A stretch of DNA of 64,000 nucleotides from Gemmatimonadota bacterium (GTDB lineage: Bacteria > JBHIER01 > G020348925): positions 2,433,688-2,497,687 of the forward strand of contig CP070758.1 of NCBI GenBank assembly GCA_020348925.1, in the 5' to 3' direction. The notes beneath the pieces were generated by a model. That model was given only the letters and a program-made list of their open reading frames with translations. It did not search any database and had not been told where the DNA came from. This document shows, in pieces, positions 48,248 to 57,600 of the stretch. The stretch's first letter is position 1. Each line of letters begins with the position of its first letter. The translations under genes and the position numbers were made by a program.

Positions 48248-49435
48248 TTACTTTTCTATGGCTTCCTTCATACGCCTCAGACCTTCCGTAATATTCTCCT
48301 TTGAATTGGCATAGGAGAGCCGGATATACTGCTCGGCTTCGCCTTCGTTTCTCACACCGAAACAACTCCTGGCCAGAACAGCGACACCAGCATCGTGCAA
48401 AAGATAATTTTGCAGCTCCTCGGCATTCTTGAGACCGAGATTCTTGCAGGCTTGCGTGACGTTGGGAAAGACATAGAACGCACCTTTCGGTATGTGACAT
48501 TTTACGCCTTCGATGTCATTGAGGCCTGCAACAACGAGATCCCTTCTCTCTTTAAATTCCTTCACCATAGCCTCAGAGGGTTCCTGTGGTCCGTCAAGCG
48601 CCTCGATCGCAGCATATTGGGTAAAGGTAGCGGTACAGGAGTTGGAATTGGTCATAAGTCGAGCGACCCAAGAAGCCATTTCCTTATTCATGATGCCGAA
48701 ACCCACGCGCCAGCCTGTCATGGCATAAGTCTTGGAGTGGCCATCTATGATAATTGTTCGCTCCTTCATCCCCGGCAGGGAAGCAATGCTCAAAAACGCA
48801 TCCTCGTACTGCATACGCGAATAGACTTCATCGGATAAGACCCACAGGTCGTGTTCGATGGCCACGTCGGCCACAGCTTCCAAGTCCGATTTGGTAAGTA
48901 CGCCTCCAGTCGGATTCTGAGGCGAGTTGAGAACAATGAACCGTGTATTCGGGGTGACTCTCTTTTTGAGATCTTCGACATCGAACCTGAATTCCTTCTC
49001 CTCCAATAGCGGTGTGGGGACAGGCTTTGCCCTGACGAAGTTGATAACCGATTCGTAGATGGGAAATCCTGGATTCGGATAGAGCACTTCATCACCCAGT
49101 TCCACACAGATCAATAATGCGAAAAACATAATAGGCTTGGCTCCGGGAGTGACAACAACTTCGTCCGGTTCAATTTCAAATCCCTTCGTTCTTGCAATAT
49201 ACCGACAAACGGCTTCCTGCAAAGGGCGGATGCCGGCAGAGGGGCTGTAATGTGTATGATTCTCCTCAATGGCCCTGATCCCGGCCCGCTTAATATGTTC
49301 AGGAGTATCGAAGTCAGGTTCTCCTATGGAAAAACTGATAATATCCTTTCCCTGCGCTTTCAGTTTGTTCACCTCCGCTAAAACATCAAAAGCAGTCTCT
49401 GTACCCAACCGATTCATTCGTCTCGCGAACTTCAT
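48248..49435 (-). CDS. Class I PLP-dependent aminotransferase (aspartate aminotransferase-like)
   Basis: GEPDFDTP, NSPQNPTG, SDEVY, SKTYAMTGWRVG, GAFY.FP and IRLSYA motifs. Confidence 0.95.
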   Translation of the reverse strand: MKFARRMNRLGTETAFDVLAEVNKLKAQGKDIISFSIGEPDFDTPEHIKRAGIRAIEENHTHYSPSAGIRPLQEAVCRYIARTKGFEIEPDEVVVTPGAKPIMFFALLICVELGDEVLYPNPGFPIYESVINFVRAKPVPTPLLEEKEFRFDVEDLKKRVTPNTRFIVLNSPQNPTGGVLTKSDLEAVADVAIEHDLWVLSDEVYSRMQYEDAFLSIASLPGMKERTIIIDGHSKTYAMTGWRVGFGIMNKEMASWVARLMTNSNSCTATFTQYAAIEALDGPQEPSEAMVKEFKERRDLVVAGLNDIEGVKCHIPKGAFYVFPNVTQACKNLGLKNAEELQNYLLHDAGVAVLARSCFGVRNEGEAEQYIRLSYANSKENITEGLRRMKEAIEK

Positions 49436-49556
49436 TTTTCACTCCTTTTCAAAGAAAGATCCAAGGATTCATGTGTTCATTCATTGCTTTGTTTCCGATT
49501 CACTCCGTTCTCAAAAACGAATTTATAATAATTGGATATACAGGTTTTCATTATTC

Positions 49557-49997
49557 TTAATACTTTTGAGAAAAATAATCCTTTAGAATGTTGCTGTGGT
49601 CAAAGGCGATTGGTTCAGGAAGGTCTTCGCAGGTGAATATACTGATTTCAGTAGCGTCGTCTTCCGCTTTTGGTGTTCCAGTCGCCTCCGCTATGAATAC
49701 GGTTGATATTGAGTGGTGTCGTGGATCACGCCTGGGATTGGAGTACGTATGAAACTGTCTTTTCAAGTTGATCTCGAGGGAGGTTTCTTCTCTCGCTTCG
49801 CGCACGGCTGCCTCTTCAACGGTTTCCCCCACATCAACAAAACCGCCCGGTATAGCCCAACCGTATGGCGGGTTTTTGCGTTTTATTAAAACAATCCCGT
49901 TTTCGATTTCGATAATGATGTCAACCGTTGGGATGGGATTCTGCCACTCTTCAAACTCTCGTCCGCAGTGTGGGCAGATTTTGTACATTTTGGGCAT
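49557..49997 (-). CDS. Nudix hydrolase
   Basis: Nudix box [27 protein letters not shown]-terminal CPHCG. Confidence 0.93.
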
Positions 49998-50030
49998 ATG
50001 AGCATCAACTTGAAGAATAGTGGCACTCCC

Positions 50031-50119
50031 TGTCATTTCGATCGAAAGAAGTAGGTGGAGAAATTCGGTTTTTTCTTAAACTGATTCCCCGATTCGGCTG
50101 CGCCTCACTCGAAACGACA
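50031..50119. repeat. REP-like palindrome (TGTCATTTCGA..TCGAAACGACA)
   Basis: Imperfect terminal inverted repeat of the same GTCAT..ATGAC class as the other intergenic palindromes. Confidence 0.55.
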
Positions 50120-50189
50120 TACGTCTCTTCAAACGACTTTTTCCCTTTGTACTGCTTCATCCTCAACAAACACCACTGAGACGTTATTA

Positions 50190-50498
50190 CTACTTCTTTA
50201 TCTCTCGCCCTAAGGTTTTCTCTACCGATTCGATCTTTCCGGTGATCCGCCCTACAGCATCTTTTCTGTCATCGACAGAAATGTTTGTAATCACCCTGGT
50301 CGAAAACTGGCGCATCTGATGATGGCAGCGTTTGATCAAATCGAATACTTCGTCCCATTCACCTTCCACCACCGTACCCATGGGATTCAGGCGATACTCG
50401 AGCCCACTTTCGTCGACCATCTTGATGATCTGGCTCACATATTGACTGAGGCCTTCTCCTCTACCTATGGGAAAGACACTGAATTCGGCCAACATCAT
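50190..50498 (-). CDS. MTH1187/YkoF-like thiamine-binding protein
   Basis: S..P.G...S.YV, SGL.Y...PMGT..EG and ID.R..K..SV pattern. Confidence 0.9.
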   Translation of the reverse strand: MMLAEFSVFPIGRGEGLSQYVSQIIKMVDESGLEYRLNPMGTVVEGEWDEVFDLIKRCHHQMRQFSTRVITNISVDDRKDAVGRITGKIESVEKTLGREIKK

Positions 50499-50559
50499 TC
50501 TACCTCAGAAGTTTATTATTGAAAATCGATTTTCTATATTTGTTCCCTCTGAAACGCTA

Positions 50560-52404
50560 TTAAAATCTCCAGCCTCCCGGTCGCGGTGGTCGGGTTTTCG
50601 GCTCCCATGAAAATGAATCCCACGCCGGGACCATTTCGGTTTTCTCCCGCTCCTTCTCCCTGGGCGGTTCTTCCGCGCCCTTCTCTGAAGGGATGATTGC
50701 GAAGGATTTTTCCGCCTCTCTTATAATTTCGGCTTTCAACCCTTCATCTGATATCTCTTCGGTGAATTTTTTCCTCCCCTCCACAATATCTCGGAGATAG
50801 AAGGCAATTTCTTCTTGACTGTAAAACCGCTTCGGATCGTAATCATCGAGATTCTGTCCGACACAAGAAACAATCTCCTGTGTCCCTAATCGTCCTTTTT
50901 CGTATCTGTTTGTGCCTCGCAAATCTCCTCGTTGGATCTCCGCCATGAGATTGATCGGGACTCGTGTCACTTTACGAACTTGTGTCTTTCTTTTTATATC
51001 GCCATCGATCTCCTCCTTCAATATTTCGCCGACCCCACCCGTGTTGTACTGGTAGAATTTCACCTTGCCGGGATATGTCTCTACAAGATCCATGATGATT
51101 TCATGAAACCGGTTGACCTTCCGAGCTCTCGAACCAATAATAAAAGGATCGGTGCCGACGATCCTCACCGATTCGCCTGCTTTCGCTGGCTGTGAGGCAA
51201 AACTATGACTCGATTCTCCCCACAAATAGGCCAATACCGCTTGCTCCGGAGTGAGCTCCTGGGCAAAAGGCATGATTGTGTTTCTCCGGGTGACAAAGGC
51301 AAAGATAACACCGTCCAGATCATCCAGAGACGGCAGATCGATACACTTCGCTCCGATTCCAACCAGCCGTCTGCCCCTGCGAACTTTCAACCTGTCCCTG
51401 CGAATCACGGCCCGCCCGTTGGCGTTCAAACGCTCGTCGAGAAAATCGGGATTGCCTCTGGCGTCGATCATGACATTTTCCAACAAGGCTGTCTTGTCGA
51501 TCAGTGCATAATACATGGCTTCTTGCAAAGCTTTATCGACATCCGTTTTTACGAAGAAGTTCTGCTCGCTGCCGAGGGCAGAGCCGTCACGTTTTAGAAA
51601 GACTATGTCATCTTGAATCACTTCCGTAGTCTCGCCGCGCCTATGATCAAGACCCAATTGATGACACGACCAAGTCGTCTTTCCTGTGGCTGACAGACCG
51701 AAGAGAAAAACCCCGTATTTCTTCAACGTGTCATCCTTCGCATCCCGCACGGTGACCAATTTCGTGCCGGCGTGCAGGCCCAGCATGCCGAGATTATCGG
51801 CACACCACATCGCCTGTCTCAGAAAACCCTTCTTAATCTCGCCCATGTAATCCGTGCCCAGGGCGATATTGATATTGTGTTCGGGAAGAACCAGGACCTG
51901 CTGTCGGATCATGTGCTCCTCGGGAATGTCGATCATAGTAAATTCAGGTCCGGGTCGTTTCGAGGGCTTTGCCATGGTGTGTCCCCACATGTAGGCGAGA
52001 CGATAATTTTTATGATCGGCTACGGACATGTAGAGATTGCAAATAGGGTTGAATTCATCGTTCTCACCCATCTGCCTTCGGATATGAATAAAGGGCAAGG
52101 TCCGCATGGCATGCAAAACATTATGCAGCTCCTCAGGCGCTTTCTCAATAAGTCCTTTCTGGAGGGATGAAAGTTTCGGCAGTCGGATGTGCTCGCTCCC
52201 CAAGTAAACGGTCCGTGGCGCCACCCGGGAGGAGACCGAGGACCGCCATCCGTAGGAGCCAAAAACGGTTTTCGTCCCGGTTTTAAAAGTGGTTCCTTTT
52301 AAGGCATTGTGCTTAAAGTGGATAACGCTACGCCCCTCAAGAAGACCCCTCAAGTTCTCACAGAAACGCTCGTATGTAGGCAGGTCGTATAAATCCTTGA
52401 TCAT
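50560..52404 (-). CDS. pckA: Phosphoenolpyruvate carboxykinase (ATP-type fold, divergent clade)
   Basis: YMGEIKKG, GLHAG, FGLSATGKTT, QDD, E..FFVKT, LENV, NGRA and YNTG motifs. Confidence 0.82.
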   Translation of the reverse strand: MIKDLYDLPTYERFCENLRGLLEGRSVIHFKHNALKGTTFKTGTKTVFGSYGWRSSVSSRVAPRTVYLGSEHIRLPKLSSLQKGLIEKAPEELHNVLHAMRTLPFIHIRRQMGENDEFNPICNLYMSVADHKNYRLAYMWGHTMAKPSKRPGPEFTMIDIPEEHMIRQQVLVLPEHNINIALGTDYMGEIKKGFLRQAMWCADNLGMLGLHAGTKLVTVRDAKDDTLKKYGVFLFGLSATGKTTWSCHQLGLDHRRGETTEVIQDDIVFLKRDGSALGSEQNFFVKTDVDKALQEAMYYALIDKTALLENVMIDARGNPDFLDERLNANGRAVIRRDRLKVRRGRRLVGIGAKCIDLPSLDDLDGVIFAFVTRRNTIMPFAQELTPEQAVLAYLWGESSHSFASQPAKAGESVRIVGTDPFIIGSRARKVNRFHEIIMDLVETYPGKVKFYQYNTGGVGEILKEEIDGDIKRKTQVRKVTRVPINLMAEIQRGDLRGTNRYEKGRLGTQEIVSCVGQNLDDYDPKRFYSQEEIAFYLRDIVEGRKKFTEEISDEGLKAEIIREAEKSFAIIPSEKGAEEPPREKEREKTEMVPAWDSFSWEPKTRPPRPGGWRF

Positions 52405-52720
52405 TCACTTCGCCCTAACACGATTGACTGTATCTCCAGATTCATTTTGATCCATAATATAGCCCAATTTGTTTCACAAATCAATGGCATTGTGGTATTT
52501 TAAGGAATAGAGACCTGTCAAAATGTCAATCCTGAACCATACATCCATTGAATGATTAGATTCTGGTTTCAGTAAAAGCAAATTTATCGGTACACAAATC
52601 ACCCCTTTCCTTGAAATTGGTCTACCGAAATCGGGAAAATAGTTGCATGAGATGTTGTTTTACCGTATATTTAAGCCCCAAAAAAAATATGTTTGAAAGT
52701 ATAAAATAAGGAGGAAGAAA

Positions 52721-54139
52721 ATGGCTCTCACAAATTTAGTCGTCCTAATCGCCGCCATCATTGTCGTCTTGATCCTTATTATTTTAGCCTTTGCAAAACA
52801 GTACAAAAAAGTCGGGCCGAACGAAGTTCTGATCATTTCCGGAGGTCGAAAACGGACCATCGTTGAACCTGATGGAACGAAGCTAAAAATCGGTTATCGT
52901 ATGCACATCGGCGGTGGTACCTTCGTCATGCCCCTCATTGAACGGGCGCAAATTCTCCCCCTGGAAGTTTTAACTGTAACCATTAAAACACCTGAAGTCC
53001 TTACCGCACAAGGAGTACACATCATCGCTGAGGCCGCAGCTCAGGTGAAAGTGGGGAGTGACGAGCATGCCATCCGCATGGCTGCCGAGCAATTCCTGGC
53101 AACAGGCACACAGGGCATCAAAGAAGTCAGCTTCCATATTTTAGAGGGGCGCATGCGAGCCACCATTGGAGCCTCCACTGTCGAGCAGATTTATAAAAAT
53201 CGTGAGGAGTTCAATAACAAAGTCATGGAGGAATCATCGGACGACTTTGCTCGAATGGGGCTGACAATCCTATCCTTTGCCCTCAAAGACATTAGTGATG
53301 CCCAGGGATATCTCGAGTCCCTGGGGAAACCGCGCATCGCTCAGGTGAGGGCAGAAGCGGCCGTGGCCGAGGCTGAAGCCAACAAGGAAGCCACAATCAA
53401 GGCCGCTCATGCACGGAAAGAGGGAGACATCGTTAAATTCCAGGCTGAGGCCGATATCGCCGCTGCCAGCCGAGATTACGAAATAAAGCGAGCCGAGTTC
53501 CAGGCGGCCATCAACCAGAAAAAAGCCCAAGCCGATCTGACCTATGAGATCGAACGGCATCGGATGAACCAGCAACTGAAGAAGGAGGAGTACAGGGTTA
53601 GGCTCATCGAAAAGGAAGAGGCCATCAAGGTTGAAGAGCGTGAGAGCCTGAGAAAGGAGCAGGAGCTGGAGGCGACTGTTAAAAAAGCCGCCGACGCCAA
53701 GAAATACCAAATCCAGACTGAATCTGAGGCTGAGAGTTACAAACTGGAACAGGAGGCCAAGGGTCGAGCTGTGGCCAAGAAGCTGGAAGGGGACGCCGAG
53801 GCCGAGGCCATGCGAAAGAAAGCGGAAGCCTGGGCGCAATACAACCAGGCGGCCATCTACGAGATGCTCGTGGAGAAGCTGCCCGAGCTGGCCCGGGCCG
53901 TGTCCGAGCCACTCTCCAAAGTGGATAAGATCGTCATAGTTGGCGGCGGCCAGGACGGCTCCCTGGGTGCTTCGAAAATCAGTGGTGAGGTGGCCAGAGT
54001 TCTGGCTCAATTGCCACCAATTATCGAGACGCTCGGGGGTGTTGATCTCAAGAAACTTGTGGAGAAATTACCGGAACTGAAGACTCAGAAAAGTCAGGAG
54101 GAAAAGGGATCGTCAGGGATCCCTGAGTCAAATACGTGA
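52721..54139 (+). CDS. Flotillin/SPFH-domain membrane protein
   Basis: N-terminal TM, YKKVGPNEVLIISG, AAEQFL, LEG..RA, GYL..LG, EA-rich coiled coil and EPLSKVDKI. Confidence 0.93.
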   Translation: MALTNLVVLIAAIIVVLILIILAFAKQYKKVGPNEVLIISGGRKRTIVEPDGTKLKIGYRMHIGGGTFVMPLIERAQILPLEVLTVTIKTPEVLTAQGVHIIAEAAAQVKVGSDEHAIRMAAEQFLATGTQGIKEVSFHILEGRMRATIGASTVEQIYKNREEFNNKVMEESSDDFARMGLTILSFALKDISDAQGYLESLGKPRIAQVRAEAAVAEAEANKEATIKAAHARKEGDIVKFQAEADIAAASRDYEIKRAEFQAAINQKKAQADLTYEIERHRMNQQLKKEEYRVRLIEKEEAIKVEERESLRKEQELEATVKKAADAKKYQIQTESEAESYKLEQEAKGRAVAKKLEGDAEAEAMRKKAEAWAQYNQAAIYEMLVEKLPELARAVSEPLSKVDKIVIVGGGQDGSLGASKISGEVARVLAQLPPIIETLGGVDLKKLVEKLPELKTQKSQEEKGSSGIPESNT

Positions 54140-54150
54140 GATGTATCACC

Positions 54151-54262
54151 TGTCATGCCTCCGACGGCAGGCATCTCCAGAAAAAGCTGAAAATCCTGCC
54201 TGCGCCTTGGGTAGTATCTACAGCGAGAGAAACCGGGCCGCTCAGGACGAGGTAGGAATGAG
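54151..54262. repeat. Degenerate REP-like palindrome
   Basis: tgtcatgcct..aggcat, cctgcctgcgc and ggaatga units. Confidence 0.4.
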
Positions 54263-54296
54263 AAGAATGTAACCTTCCCACGAACAAAGGAACACT

Positions 54297-56657
54297 ATGT
54301 TAGCCGACAGAATCCAGCGGATCGGGTTTTCTCCGACCCTGAAAATTTCAGCCAAAGCCAAAGCGATGCGGGCCGAGGGGATAGACGTCGTCGATCTCAG
54401 CGTCGGCGAGCCGGACTTTCCCACCCCCCAAAACGTGAAGGAGGCAGCCACCCGGGCCATTGCCGAGAATTTCACGAAATATACAGCCAACGACGGTATG
54501 CCAGAGTTGAAGAAGGCTATCATCGAAAAACTCCGAAGAGACAACGGCCTCGAATACGAACCGAATGAGATCATTGTCTCCAGCGGAGCTAAGAATTGCC
54601 TCTACAATCTCGCCGTCGCCCTATTGAACAAGGGAGAGGAAGTCATCATCCCCGCCCCCTATTGGGTCTCCTATCCCCCCATCGTCAGTTTGGCCAAGGG
54701 CAATCCGATTGTTATACAGACAAGGGAGGAGAATGGGTTCCGGCTTACTCCGGATCAACTTAGCGCATCCATTTCACCCAGCACAAAAGCCATAATGCTC
54801 AACAATCCATGCAATCCAACGGGGGCTGCATACACTCGCGAGGAGTTGGAGGAGATGGCCGAAGTCTGTGCCGATGAAGGGTTGATTATCATTGCCGATG
54901 AGATCTATGAAAAACTGGTCTACGATGGATTCAGTTTCGTGAGCGTCGCTTCCCTGGGCAAGAAAATCAAAGAACGATGTGTTATCGTAAACGGCGTCTC
55001 GAAAGCTTACTCCATGACAGGCTGGCGTATCGGCTACGCGGCAGGACCCAAAGAGCTTATTACCGGCATGGACAAGGTACAGAGCCATAACACTTCCAAC
55101 GCCTGTTCGGTTTCTCAGAAAGCCAGTCTCGAAGCCCTGACCGGTCCTCAGACTGATGTATCCATGATGGTCATGGAGTTTCAGAGGCGGCGCAACGTCA
55201 TTCTTCAGAAATTGAACGCCATTCCAGGGATTTCCTGCATGGAACCGCGCGGTGCCTTCTACGTGTTCCCTAACTTTCGAAATTATTTCAACAAAGAATA
55301 TGAGGGCATGCAGATCCGTAATTCGTACGGTATGGCTTACTTCCTTCTGAAGCACGCCCGAGTGGCCGTGGTCCCTGGAGAGGCTTTCGGAACCGAAGGG
55401 TACATCCGGCTCTCCTACGCCACTTCCATGGATCGAATCGAAGAGGGCCTGGATCGGATCATTGAAGCTACTGCGAAACTGGAACCGACCAGAAAGGCAA
55501 AAGTCATCACTCTGAACAACACGGTCACTCTGCGTAAATCCTTTGTCGAGACGGAAGCGACGGTGGGTGCCGAGGTGCGTGATGCCCTTGTTACCGAGGC
55601 CGAAGCTCACTTGACGCATGACAACTATTTCGAATGGAACGTGAACATCTCCGGCGTTGTTGTTCAGTTGCGAACGAATCTCCAGCACCTCTATGACTTC
55701 TGGATCGAGAACTGGTATCCGGCTCAGCTTGAAGCCGACCTTGAGCCCCATGGCATTATCTACGCCGTAGGCTGGGTACCCGGCCGCGAACCCAGGGCCT
55801 ATTACAATTCTGAGTCACGCACCGCCGTCTTCTTCAAATCCGCCTTTTACGGCCAACTGCGAAGTCTGGCCATCGGCATGACCGCGGATATCTCCGAGCG
55901 CCTCTCCGATCTCCACTGCCTCCGCGGTTTCTGTGTCGATTTCGGCGGCAGCGGGCTGATCCTCATCGCTCCGAAAGGAACGGGCAAATCGGAACACCTG
56001 GCCGAGTTCTTGAGAACGAAGGAAGTGAAACTTGTCTCCAACGACGTTGTCTTCGTCCGCTATGTCGGCGGCCAAGCGTTAGCCGATACACCCGAACGAA
56101 AGTTTTACCAGCGAACGGACTTCACCAAATTCTATCCTGATTTTGCCACACTCTTCGACCGCAGTAAATGTGAGAATGTCATCTTCAACAGGGACGAGTG
56201 CACGAACAGCTCCTGTCCGATACAGGACGACTGTCGTCTCGACCGGGGAAACCCCTTCTGTTATGAGGCCTCGGACAAATCGTACGCTATGCTCGATCCG
56301 TACTGGATCGGCGGTCCGGCGAAACATGCGAAACGAACATCGCTGAAATGGGTATTTCTCCTGACCCGCGATGCCGTCGCACCTCCGATAGCCAAACTCG
56401 GATCGAATGATGCCATTAAAATCCTCGAAGAAGGGCGGTCCGAGACATCGACAGGTGGGATCCGAAACGAACCGTTCTTCAATCCCCATTTACTCGTCCG
56501 AACCTCCGAGCGAATTGACCATCAGAAGCGCTTCTTCGACCGCCTCTTCAAAGTTGCCTCTGTCTACGCCATCAACACAACCGCCCTATCAGCACGCGAC
56601 ATCCAGACCCGCATGCGCCACATCATCTCCGGTAACGAAGCGGAGGGATTGAGGTAA
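54297..56657 (+). CDS. Fusion of a class I aminotransferase (aa ~1-400) and a PEPCK/HPr-kinase-like P-loop domain (aa ~405-786)
   Basis: GEPDFPTP, NNPCNPTG, DEIY, SKAYSMTGWRIG and IRLSYA; then FYG, APKGTGKS, SND, E.KFY.RT, CENV, FLLTRD..PP and YAINT. Confidence 0.88.
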   Translation: MLADRIQRIGFSPTLKISAKAKAMRAEGIDVVDLSVGEPDFPTPQNVKEAATRAIAENFTKYTANDGMPELKKAIIEKLRRDNGLEYEPNEIIVSSGAKNCLYNLAVALLNKGEEVIIPAPYWVSYPPIVSLAKGNPIVIQTREENGFRLTPDQLSASISPSTKAIMLNNPCNPTGAAYTREELEEMAEVCADEGLIIIADEIYEKLVYDGFSFVSVASLGKKIKERCVIVNGVSKAYSMTGWRIGYAAGPKELITGMDKVQSHNTSNACSVSQKASLEALTGPQTDVSMMVMEFQRRRNVILQKLNAIPGISCMEPRGAFYVFPNFRNYFNKEYEGMQIRNSYGMAYFLLKHARVAVVPGEAFGTEGYIRLSYATSMDRIEEGLDRIIEATAKLEPTRKAKVITLNNTVTLRKSFVETEATVGAEVRDALVTEAEAHLTHDNYFEWNVNISGVVVQLRTNLQHLYDFWIENWYPAQLEADLEPHGIIYAVGWVPGREPRAYYNSESRTAVFFKSAFYGQLRSLAIGMTADISERLSDLHCLRGFCVDFGGSGLILIAPKGTGKSEHLAEFLRTKEVKLVSNDVVFVRYVGGQALADTPERKFYQRTDFTKFYPDFATLFDRSKCENVIFNRDECTNSSCPIQDDCRLDRGNPFCYEASDKSYAMLDPYWIGGPAKHAKRTSLKWVFLLTRDAVAPPIAKLGSNDAIKILEEGRSETSTGGIRNEPFFNPHLLVRTSERIDHQKRFFDRLFKVASVYAINTTALSARDIQTRMRHIISGNEAEGLR

Positions 56658-56838
56658 CACATCAGGCTCAACTTCATACCTCTTCAATAGGCATTGCTTG
56701 CGGTTTAGCAAAATTCATAACAAATAACATGTTAGTTGAAGAACAATTCATTCTTGATCGCCCACTATTTGTATGCTGGGCGAAAATCTTTAATGGGACA
56801 TATATCTCACTCGATCTCTCGTTAAAGATACATATACC

Positions 56839-57600
56839 ATGAATACTGAAAAAAAAACAAACATAGTGCTCTCCATGGTAATTGCCTTTTCTGTAGGAGC
56901 TTCATCATCATCCTGTGCCCGATGGCACTTTGATATTGAAACAGGAGTAGTTTTGCCCGGCTATAATGACGTACGTATCCCCAATGAGACCGGGACCCTC
57001 TTTTCATTGACAGAAGAACTTGAGACAGATCCGAAGCCGTTTTTTCGGACAAAAGTAACCTATCCAATAAACGATAGACACTCCCTAACGATTTTGGCTG
57101 CTCCCCTTCGTCTGCATGCCGAAGGTCAGGCAAACAGGCCGGTGAAGTTTGAGGAGGAGGAATTTCCTGCAAATACTTCGCTTACAGCGAAATACCGTTT
57201 TGATTCGTATCGGTTGACCTATCGCTATGATTTCCACAGATCGGAGAACCTGCAATCAGGAATCGGCTTCACGGCAAAGATCCGGGACGCTTCAATCAGT
57301 TTGGAGGGGGATGATAAGAAAGCCGAAAAGAAAAACACCGGCTTTGTCCCCCTCATCAACTTCAGACTCCATTGGACCTTTGCTAAGAAACTCAGTCTCG
57401 TACTGGACGGTGACGCCCTGGCTGCGCCGCAGGGCCAAGGGAGAGCTGAAGATGTCTTGTTGGCTGTTCAATACAATATGAATAAAAATATTGATCTCAA
57501 ATTGGGTTACAGAATTCTTGAAGGGGGTGCAGACGTTGATGAGGTTTACAATTTCACACTGATTCATTATCTTGTATTTGGGGCGGTTGTTTCGCTTTAA
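56839..57600 (+). CDS. Putative outer-membrane beta-barrel protein
   Basis: Signal-peptide-like N-terminus; alternating aromatic beta strands (YRFDSYRLTYRY, LGYRILEGG). Confidence 0.7.
   Translation: MNTEKKTNIVLSMVIAFSVGASSSSCARWHFDIETGVVLPGYNDVRIPNETGTLFSLTEELETDPKPFFRTKVTYPINDRHSLTILAAPLRLHAEGQANRPVKFEEEEFPANTSLTAKYRFDSYRLTYRYDFHRSENLQSGIGFTAKIRDASISLEGDDKKAEKKNTGFVPLINFRLHWTFAKKLSLVLDGDALAAPQGQGRAEDVLLAVQYNMNKNIDLKLGYRILEGGADVDEVYNFTLIHYLVFGAVVSL

Follow-up and report, generated by a model that had tools for sequence, protein, structure and literature searches.

Aspartate aminotransferase (AspAT) interconverts aspartate plus 2-oxoglutarate and oxaloacetate plus glutamate, and phosphoenolpyruvate (PEP) carboxykinase (PEPCK) consumes oxaloacetate. 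Here, we analyzed a gene in which a class I aminotransferase is continued, in one reading frame, by a PEPCK-fold domain with substituted catalytic residues. The gene lies in a 64,000-nucleotide stretch of a Gemmatimonadota bacterium genome (contig CP070758.1, positions 2,433,688 to 2,497,687 of the forward strand), which as a whole is called the window below. We read the domain as a noncatalytic, PEPCK-derived module that binds a ligand (a sensor), serves as an adaptor, or does both, and we give this reading, which builds on sequence comparison, a probability of roughly 0.55.

Several described proteins resemble parts of the fusion. Solved class-Ib aminotransferases (6f35, 6f77, 1j32, 5wmh, and 1bkg) align over their full length with its N-terminal half, and none of them carries a C-terminal PEPCK-fold domain. 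ATP-type PEPCKs (PckA, PF01293; structures 1ii2 and 1aq2) share with the C-terminal domain a two-lobe fold and the order of motifs (Y-G-x-x-K, H, P-loop, DD, E-x-x-x-Y-x-K-T, ENV, NTR, and NTG), and both are tied to oxaloacetate metabolism by genomic context. However, the domain is shorter (approximately 380 aa versus 520 to 610 aa), is fused to an aminotransferase, contains an inserted four-cysteine motif (Cys4), and deviates at catalytic positions. The C-terminal domain of HPr kinase (HprK; PF07475, TIGR00679) belongs to the same superfamily and has in common with our domain the second lobe and the GKSE sequence followed by an acidic pair, but HprK is devoid of the first lobe, and its conserved His is an Arg here.

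By analogy, a precedent for an inactive PEPCK-fold protein in a structural role is NDUEG2 of Euglena gracilis complex I (8j9h). Its authors (PMC10884005) judge this subunit unlikely to be functional, report that PEPCK activity was not detected, and describe a truncated C-terminal lobe with missing ATP sites. NDUEG2 is comparable to the putatively inactive domain as a PEPCK-fold component of a larger assembly, but it is eukaryotic and mitochondrial and has neither an aminotransferase nor a relation to flotillin. A full-text literature search, which covered few subscription journals, found no publication on the fusion, on a bacterial PEPCK-like pseudoenzyme, or on a flotillin-aminotransferase operon; this agrees with a first-pass annotation of the window, made from the sequence alone, which had known of no characterization of this architecture.

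The fused aminotransferase and its PEPCK-fold domain

The features of the locus are listed in Table 1. As the first-pass annotation had stated, a complete class I aminotransferase runs on without a stop into the C-terminal part. Residues 1 to 396 can be aligned over their entire length with characterized enzymes of class Ib, namely aspartate or aspartate/prephenate aminotransferases; aspartate aminotransferase B (6f35_A; E 2e-116) is the closest solved relative, and 1j32, 6f77, 5wmh, and 1bkg follow (down to E 2e-94 for 1bkg). Residues K99, N173, D201, Y204, K236, R244, and R371, which we take to fulfill pyridoxal phosphate-, substrate-, and dicarboxylate-site roles, are invariant in 40 fused homologues. 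Judging by these residues, the aminotransferase half is intact. Since the score against the NCBIfam aspartate-transaminase equivalog NF004769 (456 bits) does not reach the cut-off (617 bits), the specificity for aspartate is strongly suggested rather than proven. Three unfused paralogues of the fused aminotransferase are encoded in the host genome.

Table 1. Positions of the features discussed (window coordinates, unless a locus is named)
Feature	Position	Strand	Remark
ATP-type PEPCK of a divergent clade (P0002), all catalytic motifs	50560..52404	-	614 aa; PF01293, E 3e-27
Basic/aromatic C-terminal tail of the PEPCK (KTRPPRPGGWRF), after a variable linker	50563..50598	-	alignment A3, 21 sequences
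Divergent intergenic region between the PEPCK gene and the flotillin-fusion pair	52405..52720	.	316 bp
Flotillin gene (SPFH/Band_7 + Flot)	52721..54139	+	Pfam; 157 bp upstream of the fusion
Whole fusion gene	54297..56657	+	786 aa; TAA stop; one open frame, no internal stops
Class-Ib aminotransferase half, probable AspAT	54297..55484	+	aa 1-396
Aminotran_1_2 match (PF00155)	54384-55460	+	aa 30-388; E 6e-82
SKAYSMTGWR stretch with K236, in the aminotransferase half	54999-55028	+	
Interdomain linker, predicted to be flexible	55485..55520	+	aa 397-408
Compact PEPCK-fold domain with substituted catalytic residues	55521..56654	+	aa 409-786
YGQLRS motif	55848..55865	+	R522 = E. coli PEPCK K212; S523 = K213
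CLRGF motif	55917..55931	+	R543 = PEPCK H232 and HprK His
P-loop APKGTGKSE	55968..55994	+	K564 = PEPCK K254; S565 = T255
SND motif	56037..56045	+	N582 = PEPCK D268; D583 = D269
ERK triad	56094..56102	+	E600 = PEPCK E282
CENV motif	56169..56180	+	E626/N627 = PEPCK E311/N312
Cys4 insert, between the ENV- and NTR-equivalent motifs	56199..56261	+	C635-x4-C640-x5-C646-x8-C655
KSYA motif	56277..56288	+	Y663 = PEPCK NTR arginine (R333)
Free-standing, active-like relatives (examples)	L069:6941-8053; L041:7923-9173; L042:1791-2900		~370 aa, mostly archaeal

The last 390 residues of the fusion (P0003) were used as the domain query. The AlphaFold2 model built from the domain alignment reached a predicted local distance difference test (pLDDT) value of 92.8 and a predicted template modeling (pTM) score of 0.91. 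Foldseek placed ATP-PEPCKs at ranks 1 to 35 (E ~1e-17; TM score, 0.68 to 0.75), followed by GTP-PEPCKs. In a VIA-align 2 comparison of the model with 48,161 chains, the Trypanosoma cruzi PEPCK 1ii2_B matched both lobes (Z 28.5; root mean square deviation, 3.1; 351 aligned residues; model residues 7 to 390), and lower scores were obtained for GTP-PEPCK (Z 21.9), the above-mentioned Euglena subunit (Z 21.6), and PPi-PEPCK (Z 14.8). Four HPr kinases matched residues 142 to 390 only, over approximately 140 residues (Z ~11). Since PEPCK matches both lobes and HprK only the second one, the model depicts a complete, compact two-lobe PEPCK fold and not merely an HprK-like P-loop lobe. This bears out the proposal of the first-pass annotation that the PEPCK fold is kept.

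In the full-length AlphaFold2 model (pLDDT 84.5; pTM 0.52), residues 400 to 408 had pLDDT values below 50, and the packing of the two halves was not confident; therefore, the interdomain interface cannot be described from it. According to this model, the halves are independent modules on a tether.

The relationship to PEPCK is remote at the sequence level. No PF01293 match was found in Pfam at E ≤1, the NCBIfam PEPCK model NF006821 gave 11 bits (cut-off, 369), and pairwise BLASTP of the C-terminal 390 residues against the neighboring PEPCK was not significant (E 0.43). Likewise, phmmer against PDB sequences yielded nothing significant, the top match being an HprK (E 0.098). The library matches were all below threshold and lay around the P-loop: Hpr_kinase_C (PF07475; E 9e-4; 19.3 bits, cut-off 33.3) and TIGR00679 (E 8.5e-6; 25.2 bits, cut-off 240). 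The comparison of families was more sensitive: an hhalign run with the domain plus 43 homologues against 21 PEPCKs of the neighbor's clade (alignment A3) gave a probability of 97.3% (E 2.7e-11; 238 columns). Eight motif pairs between this PEPCK and the domain had been listed in the first-pass annotation, and all of them are present where it had placed them. Seven pairs were reproduced exactly by hhalign (YMGEIKK/FYGQLRS, GLSATGKTT/APKGTGKSE, QDD/SND, EQNFFVKT/ERKFYQRT, LENV/CENV, NGRA/KSYA, and YQYNT/YAINT). For the eighth, GLHAG/CLRGF, hhalign shifted the His and set DLH(540)C against GLH(211)A, but the family alignment, the HprK alignments, and the E. coli PEPCK alignment all back R543 as the equivalent of the His.

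To assign residues, the profile of the wider family was aligned to E. coli PEPCK (2py7_X, residues 198 to 464) and to T. cruzi PEPCK. Conservation was counted in relatives of the fusion: a search of fusion-sized proteins (432 to 1376 aa) with the C-terminal part gave 954 matches at E ≤1e-3, and 118 of the best 120 were at least 700 aa long and had the same ~780-aa architecture, from many sources (the shorter P0009 and P0070 were excluded from the counts). We take the E. coli PEPCK residues K212/K213, H232, D268/D269, and R333 to have the catalytic and metal-site roles described for PEPCK; PDB titles list Y207, G209, K212, K213, S250, K254, D269, and R65 of PEPCK among the residues studied as mutants.

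At the equivalents of K212, H232, D268, and the NTR arginine R333, the window protein has Arg, Arg, Asn, and Tyr, as had been pointed out in the first-pass annotation. The first two replacements are the rule in the fused family: position 522 is Arg in 116 of the 118 proteins, and position 543 is Arg in 108 and His in 5. In the 48 fused loci taken from genomes, R522 was present in all and R543 in all except L040. Position 582 is Asn in 76 and Asp in 30 proteins, while D583 is kept in 114. Position 663, which the T. cruzi alignment supports by pairing the family's nsR with the PEPCK NTR, is variable (R 42, Y 25, I 25 of 118). Further differences from PEPCK are a Ser at the K213 position (S523; 112/118) and Arg-Lys at G283-G284. 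The same fusion thus occurs widely with the substitutions conserved, and its fused homologues do not retain the full catalytic set of PEPCK.

The P-loop presents a mixed picture. In the window protein it is a canonical Walker-A motif (G561-T-G-K564-S565), as the first-pass annotation had it, but its claim does not extend to the family, in which the motif is often noncanonical. K564, kept in 115/118 proteins, is mostly followed by T (36), S (32), M (32), or A (9); most fused loci read G-T-K-K-T-E, with Lys replacing the Gly before the P-loop Lys.

The remaining pocket hardly varies. E600, R601, and K602 are each found in 118/118 proteins, as are E626 and N627 and the pair D667-P668; N729 and N760 are kept in 117 and H731 in 114. 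Together with R459, Y518, K564, and D583, these residues make up a near-invariant former pocket. The cysteines C635, C640, C646, and C655 are conserved in 117, 117, 117, and 113 proteins, respectively, and probably form a metal-binding knuckle; Cys4 is also found in some active-like relatives (see below). Judged from these alignments, the pattern of substitutions is that of a domain under strong selection with a remodeled pocket and not that of decay. Homology to an enzyme family combined with loss of residues conserved in its active members, the hallmark of a pseudoenzyme, was found here.

Distribution and ancestry of the domain

Wherever upstream DNA was available (34 bacterial loci), the aminotransferase part adjoins the domain. 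The fusion occurs in several phyla of the FCB group, in at least 55 genomes; the lineages concerned include Zixibacteria, Aminicenantes, KSB1, Calditrichota, and Ignavibacteria. Two samples of 101 genomes each were compared, one of Zixibacteriota (15 with the fusion) and one of the class around an Aminicenantia metagenome-assembled genome (MAG) (40 with the fusion). The sampled genomes are MAGs of related lineages, so that the counts are not independent and absences may reflect incompleteness.

The fused domain has relatives that look catalytically intact. In an exhaustive search with the domain alone, 203 of 1.84 billion cluster representatives matched at E ≤1e-3 and 130 at E ≤1e-10; many of the 203 are free-standing proteins of 350 to 420 aa or have other architectures of 450 to 570 aa. 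The free-standing "mini-PEPCK" relatives (P0131, P0134, P0147, L041, L042, L069, and others) are 30 to 42% identical to the domain, have the same compact size, and share its ERK, ENV, DP, NP[YH], and NT motifs and, in some of them, Cys4. They differ from the fused domain in that they are unfused and keep the Lys, the His, GK[ST], DD, and the Arg. In a motif table of 78 representatives of at least 280 aa, most keep Y-K-S-H, G-G-K-[ST], D-D, and the Arg, and the active-like relatives carry a Ser at the K213 position. Archaeal free-standing copies read YYGQVKS, SIHGS, GTGKST, SDDW, and YSRA. The nearest clusters in the ESM Atlas were mostly hypothetical proteins, chiefly from Archaea, and no curated family or name covering the free-standing relatives was found.

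A quick maximum-likelihood tree was calculated from 84 rows under LG+G4 and rooted at the midpoint solely for display. In it, the domains fused to an aminotransferase (19 rows) group together with a support of 99 (Shimodaira-Hasegawa-like approximate likelihood ratio test). Their sister group is composed of three N-terminal domains fused to PEPCK (support, 100), and the two groups are joined at a support of 84. The next larger group with support (95; 36 rows) brings in active-like rows exclusively, including the archaeal clade whose neighborhood is described below. Both the Lys and the His are present in 49 of the 84 rows, all of them outside the fused clade; the same holds for both archaeal genome loci. 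K, H, DD, and R are all retained in the nearest free-standing relatives, from which it follows that the substituted form seen in the fusion is derived.

The neighborhood of the archaeal relatives again points to aminotransferases. A class I aminotransferase gene adjoins the free-standing gene, in divergent orientation, in 20 of 25 archaeal metagenome loci (L067-L091); the other five are without upstream DNA, and, because the 25 loci are interrelated, they do not count as independent cases. The gene directly upstream of the free-standing one in a Bathyarchaeia MAG encodes an Ldh_2 malate/lactate dehydrogenase. As judged from these sequences, the free-standing, mostly archaeal family may be an undescribed oxaloacetate-using enzyme. 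A flotillin homologue was not found in the loci of the free-standing mini-PEPCKs.

Other members of the family were noted. Substituted clades arose separately in the tree, for example P0180, P0226, P0243, and P0263, free-standing proteins of 387 to 410 aa that kept Cys4 and lost the P-loop and nearly all catalytic-type residues; judging by their sequences, the family gave rise to a substituted form here independently. The active-like member P0192 (754 aa) is interrupted, immediately behind its P-loop region, by an intein (Intein_splicing, E 1.5e-16). Three Zixibacteriota genomes without the fusion (G010, G032, and G087) encode a 580- to 600-aa protein that matches only domain residues ~44 to 194 (E ~1e-27), along with a second, shorter-matching flotillin type on other contigs; these proteins may belong to a parallel system.

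Irregular copies of the fusion were also seen. In G046, G076, G090, G093, and G198, one in-frame stop (TAG, TGA, or TAA) was flagged inside the domain match; the frames are full length (781 to 812 aa), and the flags probably result from the alignment running past the natural stop codon. The closest relative of the window protein, from a sister genus (L005:7050-9167, genome G001), has a domain that is 81% identical and an in-frame internal deletion: a short, unrelated sequence takes the place of aminotransferase residues ~122 to 209, and the PEPCK-like half is complete. Searches of G001, an 87%-complete MAG, revealed neither PEPCK nor flotillin; the system may be decaying here, or the observation may be an artifact of the MAG. 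The window genome itself (G000) is a single 5.04-Mb contig, and its lineage is a very sparsely sampled candidate lineage, the phylum having only two species genomes in the GTDB-based collection.

Flotillin and PEPCK as genomic partners

In 41 of the 44 loci whose upstream DNA is available (29/32 bacterial loci and 12/12 loci from PEPCK-less genomes), the gene that immediately precedes the fusion, in the same orientation, encodes flotillin. In 10 of these last 12, those in which the gap was read, it measures 21 to 42 bp. Flotillin was present in all 55 sampled genomes with the fusion (15/15 Zixibacteriota and 40/40 of the Aminicenantia-class sample), versus 9 of 147 genomes without it (8/86 and 1/61; E ≤1e-40), and three of these nine are of the full-length type. 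Genes farther from the flotillin-fusion pair vary between loci. We conclude that flotillin, and not PEPCK, is the tightest, obligate partner of the fusion.

The first-pass annotation had linked the domain to the intact PEPCK nearby, and this link was strengthened. P0002 is the only ATP-type PEPCK of the host genome, and no GTP-type PEPCK was found there. A PEPCK that is 59 to 71% identical to it is present in the same locus in 26 of the 39 genome loci found with the domain, usually directly downstream of the fusion on the same strand. This special PEPCK clade was detected in 14 Zixibacteriota genomes, all of which have the fusion, and one fusion genome lacked it; it was found in none of the 86 Zixibacteriota genomes without the fusion, six of which gave only weak matches to other PEPCKs. 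In the Aminicenantia-class sample, it occurs in 11 genomes, again all with the fusion, is missing from 29 of the 40 fusion genomes, and was found in none of the 61 genomes without the fusion (six have a 39 to 44% identical cousin). Since all 25 special PEPCKs are accompanied by the fusion, yet 30 of the 55 fusion genomes show no such PEPCK, the dependence is one-way. We rejected the idea that the fused domain acts as a real PEPCK where the special one is missing: R522 and R543 are present in 12/12 such loci.

A direct connection between domain and PEPCK is provided by an alternative fusion. In P0145 (899 aa) and in loci L056 and L062-L064, a substituted domain is fused, as the N-terminal part, to a PEPCK of the window's clade (40% identity to the window PEPCK over 503 aa). 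This N-domain shows K→R, H→R, N-D or D-D, and R→F/Y and has no Cys4; in P0145, the P-loop is also missing. No flotillin gene was found within 3.5 to 7 kb of the PEPCK-fused form. Furthermore, the PEPCKs of the special clade end in a conserved tail with the consensus K-[ST]-R-P-[RP]-R-x-G-x-W-R-[FWY], which looks like a short docking or membrane-binding peptide. A complex prediction with the domain (P0003 aa 10-390, alignment A2) and the PEPCK (aa 1-614, A3) gave 0.00 in both runs and carries no weight either way.

Regarding transcription, promoter-like hexamers are present on both strands of the divergent intergenic region, at counts not above those of shuffled sequences. In positions 50000-57200, neither promoters (10 versus 6.1 ± 2.4 in shuffled sequences) nor terminators (7 versus 7.7 ± 2.6) exceeded expectation. 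Between the PEPCK gene and the edge of the cluster (48248-50498, minus strand), there are a Thiamine_BP/YkoF-type gene, a NUDIX hydrolase gene, and a gene for a second class I aminotransferase, which is 38% identical to the fused one and has the Pyrococcus enzymes 1dju and 1gd9 as its closest solved relatives. The aminotransferase-NUDIX pair also adjoins the fusion in L005.

Possible roles of the fused domain

According to our preferred reading, a working class-Ib AspAT half is tied by a flexible linker of approximately 12 residues to the compact PEPCK-fold domain. The latter descends from unnamed, free-standing, catalytically intact-looking proteins of the PEPCK/HprK superfamily that are encoded beside aminotransferase genes in archaea. 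In the fused lineage, Arg, Arg, and Asn took the places of K212, H232, and D268, and the NTR arginine is no longer fixed; for this reason, the domain is very probably incapable of PEPCK-type, metal-assisted phosphoryl transfer. Since, in addition, the rest of the former pocket is almost invariant and Cys4 is present, we read the domain as a ligand-binding and/or adaptor module. The pocket, now more cationic, would bind an anionic ligand (oxaloacetate, PEP, or a nucleotide), a partner protein, or both. In this way, the domain would integrate the oxaloacetate-making AspAT into a conserved module at the aspartate/oxaloacetate/PEP node that consists of flotillin, the AspAT-pseudo-PEPCK fusion, and often PEPCK; it could do so as a sensor of an anionic metabolite or nucleotide, as a holder of partner proteins, or in both capacities. 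A sensor or docking role had been among the suggestions of the first-pass annotation; our analysis adds that the domain stems from an unnamed, active-looking family already linked to aminotransferases, that it also occurs fused to PEPCK, and that flotillin is the invariant partner.

Several observations weigh against this reading. The window protein keeps the P-loop Lys-Ser, D583, and most pocket residues, which would suit an enzyme too, and a repurposed active site would show equally strong conservation of the pocket. Since active-like relatives have a Ser at the K213 position, the chemistry of the family may never have been that of a textbook PEPCK, which weakens conclusions drawn from the roles of PEPCK residues. 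Because 30 of 55 fusion genomes are without the special PEPCK, docking of PEPCK cannot be the sole role, and because the P0145-type domain has neither P-loop nor Cys4, nucleotide binding cannot be universal. Finally, the relatedness of the compared MAGs limits the weight of the counts here as well.

The first alternative to be weighed is that the domain has kept an enzymatic function, though with a different chemistry. In place of the metal-binding Lys and His, the Arg-Arg pair would serve in a metal-independent reaction on the product of the aminotransferase, for example, oxaloacetate decarboxylation, tautomerization, or phosphotransfer via the retained P-loop Lys and D583. Amid an otherwise drifting domain, the pocket is near-invariant (ERK, EN, DP, and N760 in 117 to 118 and K564 in 115 of 118 proteins), and the replacements are specific and conserved rather than random. 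Moreover, the wider family already departs from PEPCK at the K213 and G283-G284 positions, and apparent pseudoenzymes are reported to be able to retain activity through migrated residues (PMC10211241). However, three residues common to PEPCK, HprK, and the active-like relatives were replaced together, Met or Ala follows the P-loop Lys in 41/118 proteins, and the preceding Gly is a Lys in most loci. In addition, the sister form in P0145 lost the P-loop, and many of the genomes encode an intact PEPCK as a protein of its own. On balance, we regard retained catalysis as rather unlikely, though deserving serious consideration.

To a similarly limited degree, we give credence to a bolder version of the preferred reading, in which a flotillin-scaffolded metabolon would lead from aspartate via oxaloacetate to PEP. 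Here, the dead PEPCK domain would be an adaptor that parks AspAT on flotillin assemblies and also recruits the special PEPCK, perhaps via the conserved basic/aromatic C-terminal tail of the latter, and unstable oxaloacetate would be handed over at the membrane. If true, a metabolic enzyme would for the first time be defined as a client of a bacterial flotillin, and a PEPCK-derived pseudoenzyme would for the first time be known from bacteria. As a corollary, the archaeal free-standing relatives would be a new compact class of oxaloacetate-using kinases with a neighboring aminotransferase.

Slightly less probable still is that the domain is mainly a flotillin-binding adaptor, which would bring AspAT, and PEPCK where present, to flotillin assemblies at the membrane, its likeness to PEPCK being merely historical. 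This would fit the position of flotillin as the only invariant partner at a short distance from the fusion, amid variable outer genes, and the fact that the presence of the domain distinguishes the fused aminotransferase from the three paralogues of the host genome that are not fused. On the other hand, no flotillin gene accompanies the PEPCK-fused form, a pure adaptor would not need an invariant former active-site pocket, and adjacency and co-occurrence could reflect inheritance as one block among related lineages.

An HPr-kinase-type protein kinase acting on a protein substrate is very improbable: although the sole library matches are to HprK models around an HprK-like GKSE P-loop, we rejected membership in this family because both scores are far below the cut-offs, HprK structures match one lobe only while PEPCK matches both, the conserved His is an Arg, and a genuine HprK is encoded elsewhere in the host genome (216 bits). 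We also rejected, and see hardly any chance for, the views that the fusion is an artifact, be it of chimeric assembly, of a frameshift, or of an overlooked stop (a single-assembly artifact had been named in the first-pass annotation as a refuting outcome), or that the C-terminal part is decaying junk, for which nothing speaks except the internal deletion in the aminotransferase half of the sister-genus copy, since the architecture recurs across proteins, loci, and genomes and the domain is confidently modeled and strongly conserved.

Returning to the domain as a noncatalytic sensor and/or adaptor, the fusion represents a large protein family outside curated models. It comprises 954 fused proteins, and the wider family of the domain has 203 cluster representatives; in databases, the fused members are annotated simply as aminotransferases. 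It offers a natural example of the transition from enzyme to pseudoenzyme, in which active-looking ancestors, a fused substituted form, and an alternative fusion to a real enzyme can be compared. To our knowledge, the cargo of bacterial flotillins is poorly defined, and the obligate pairing makes the fusion a concrete candidate client. The module would lie at the aspartate/oxaloacetate/PEP junction of abundant uncultured lineages of sediment and subsurface, and metabolic reconstructions of these lineages would have to include it. In summary, the fusion points to an undescribed organization of the aspartate-oxaloacetate-PEP junction.

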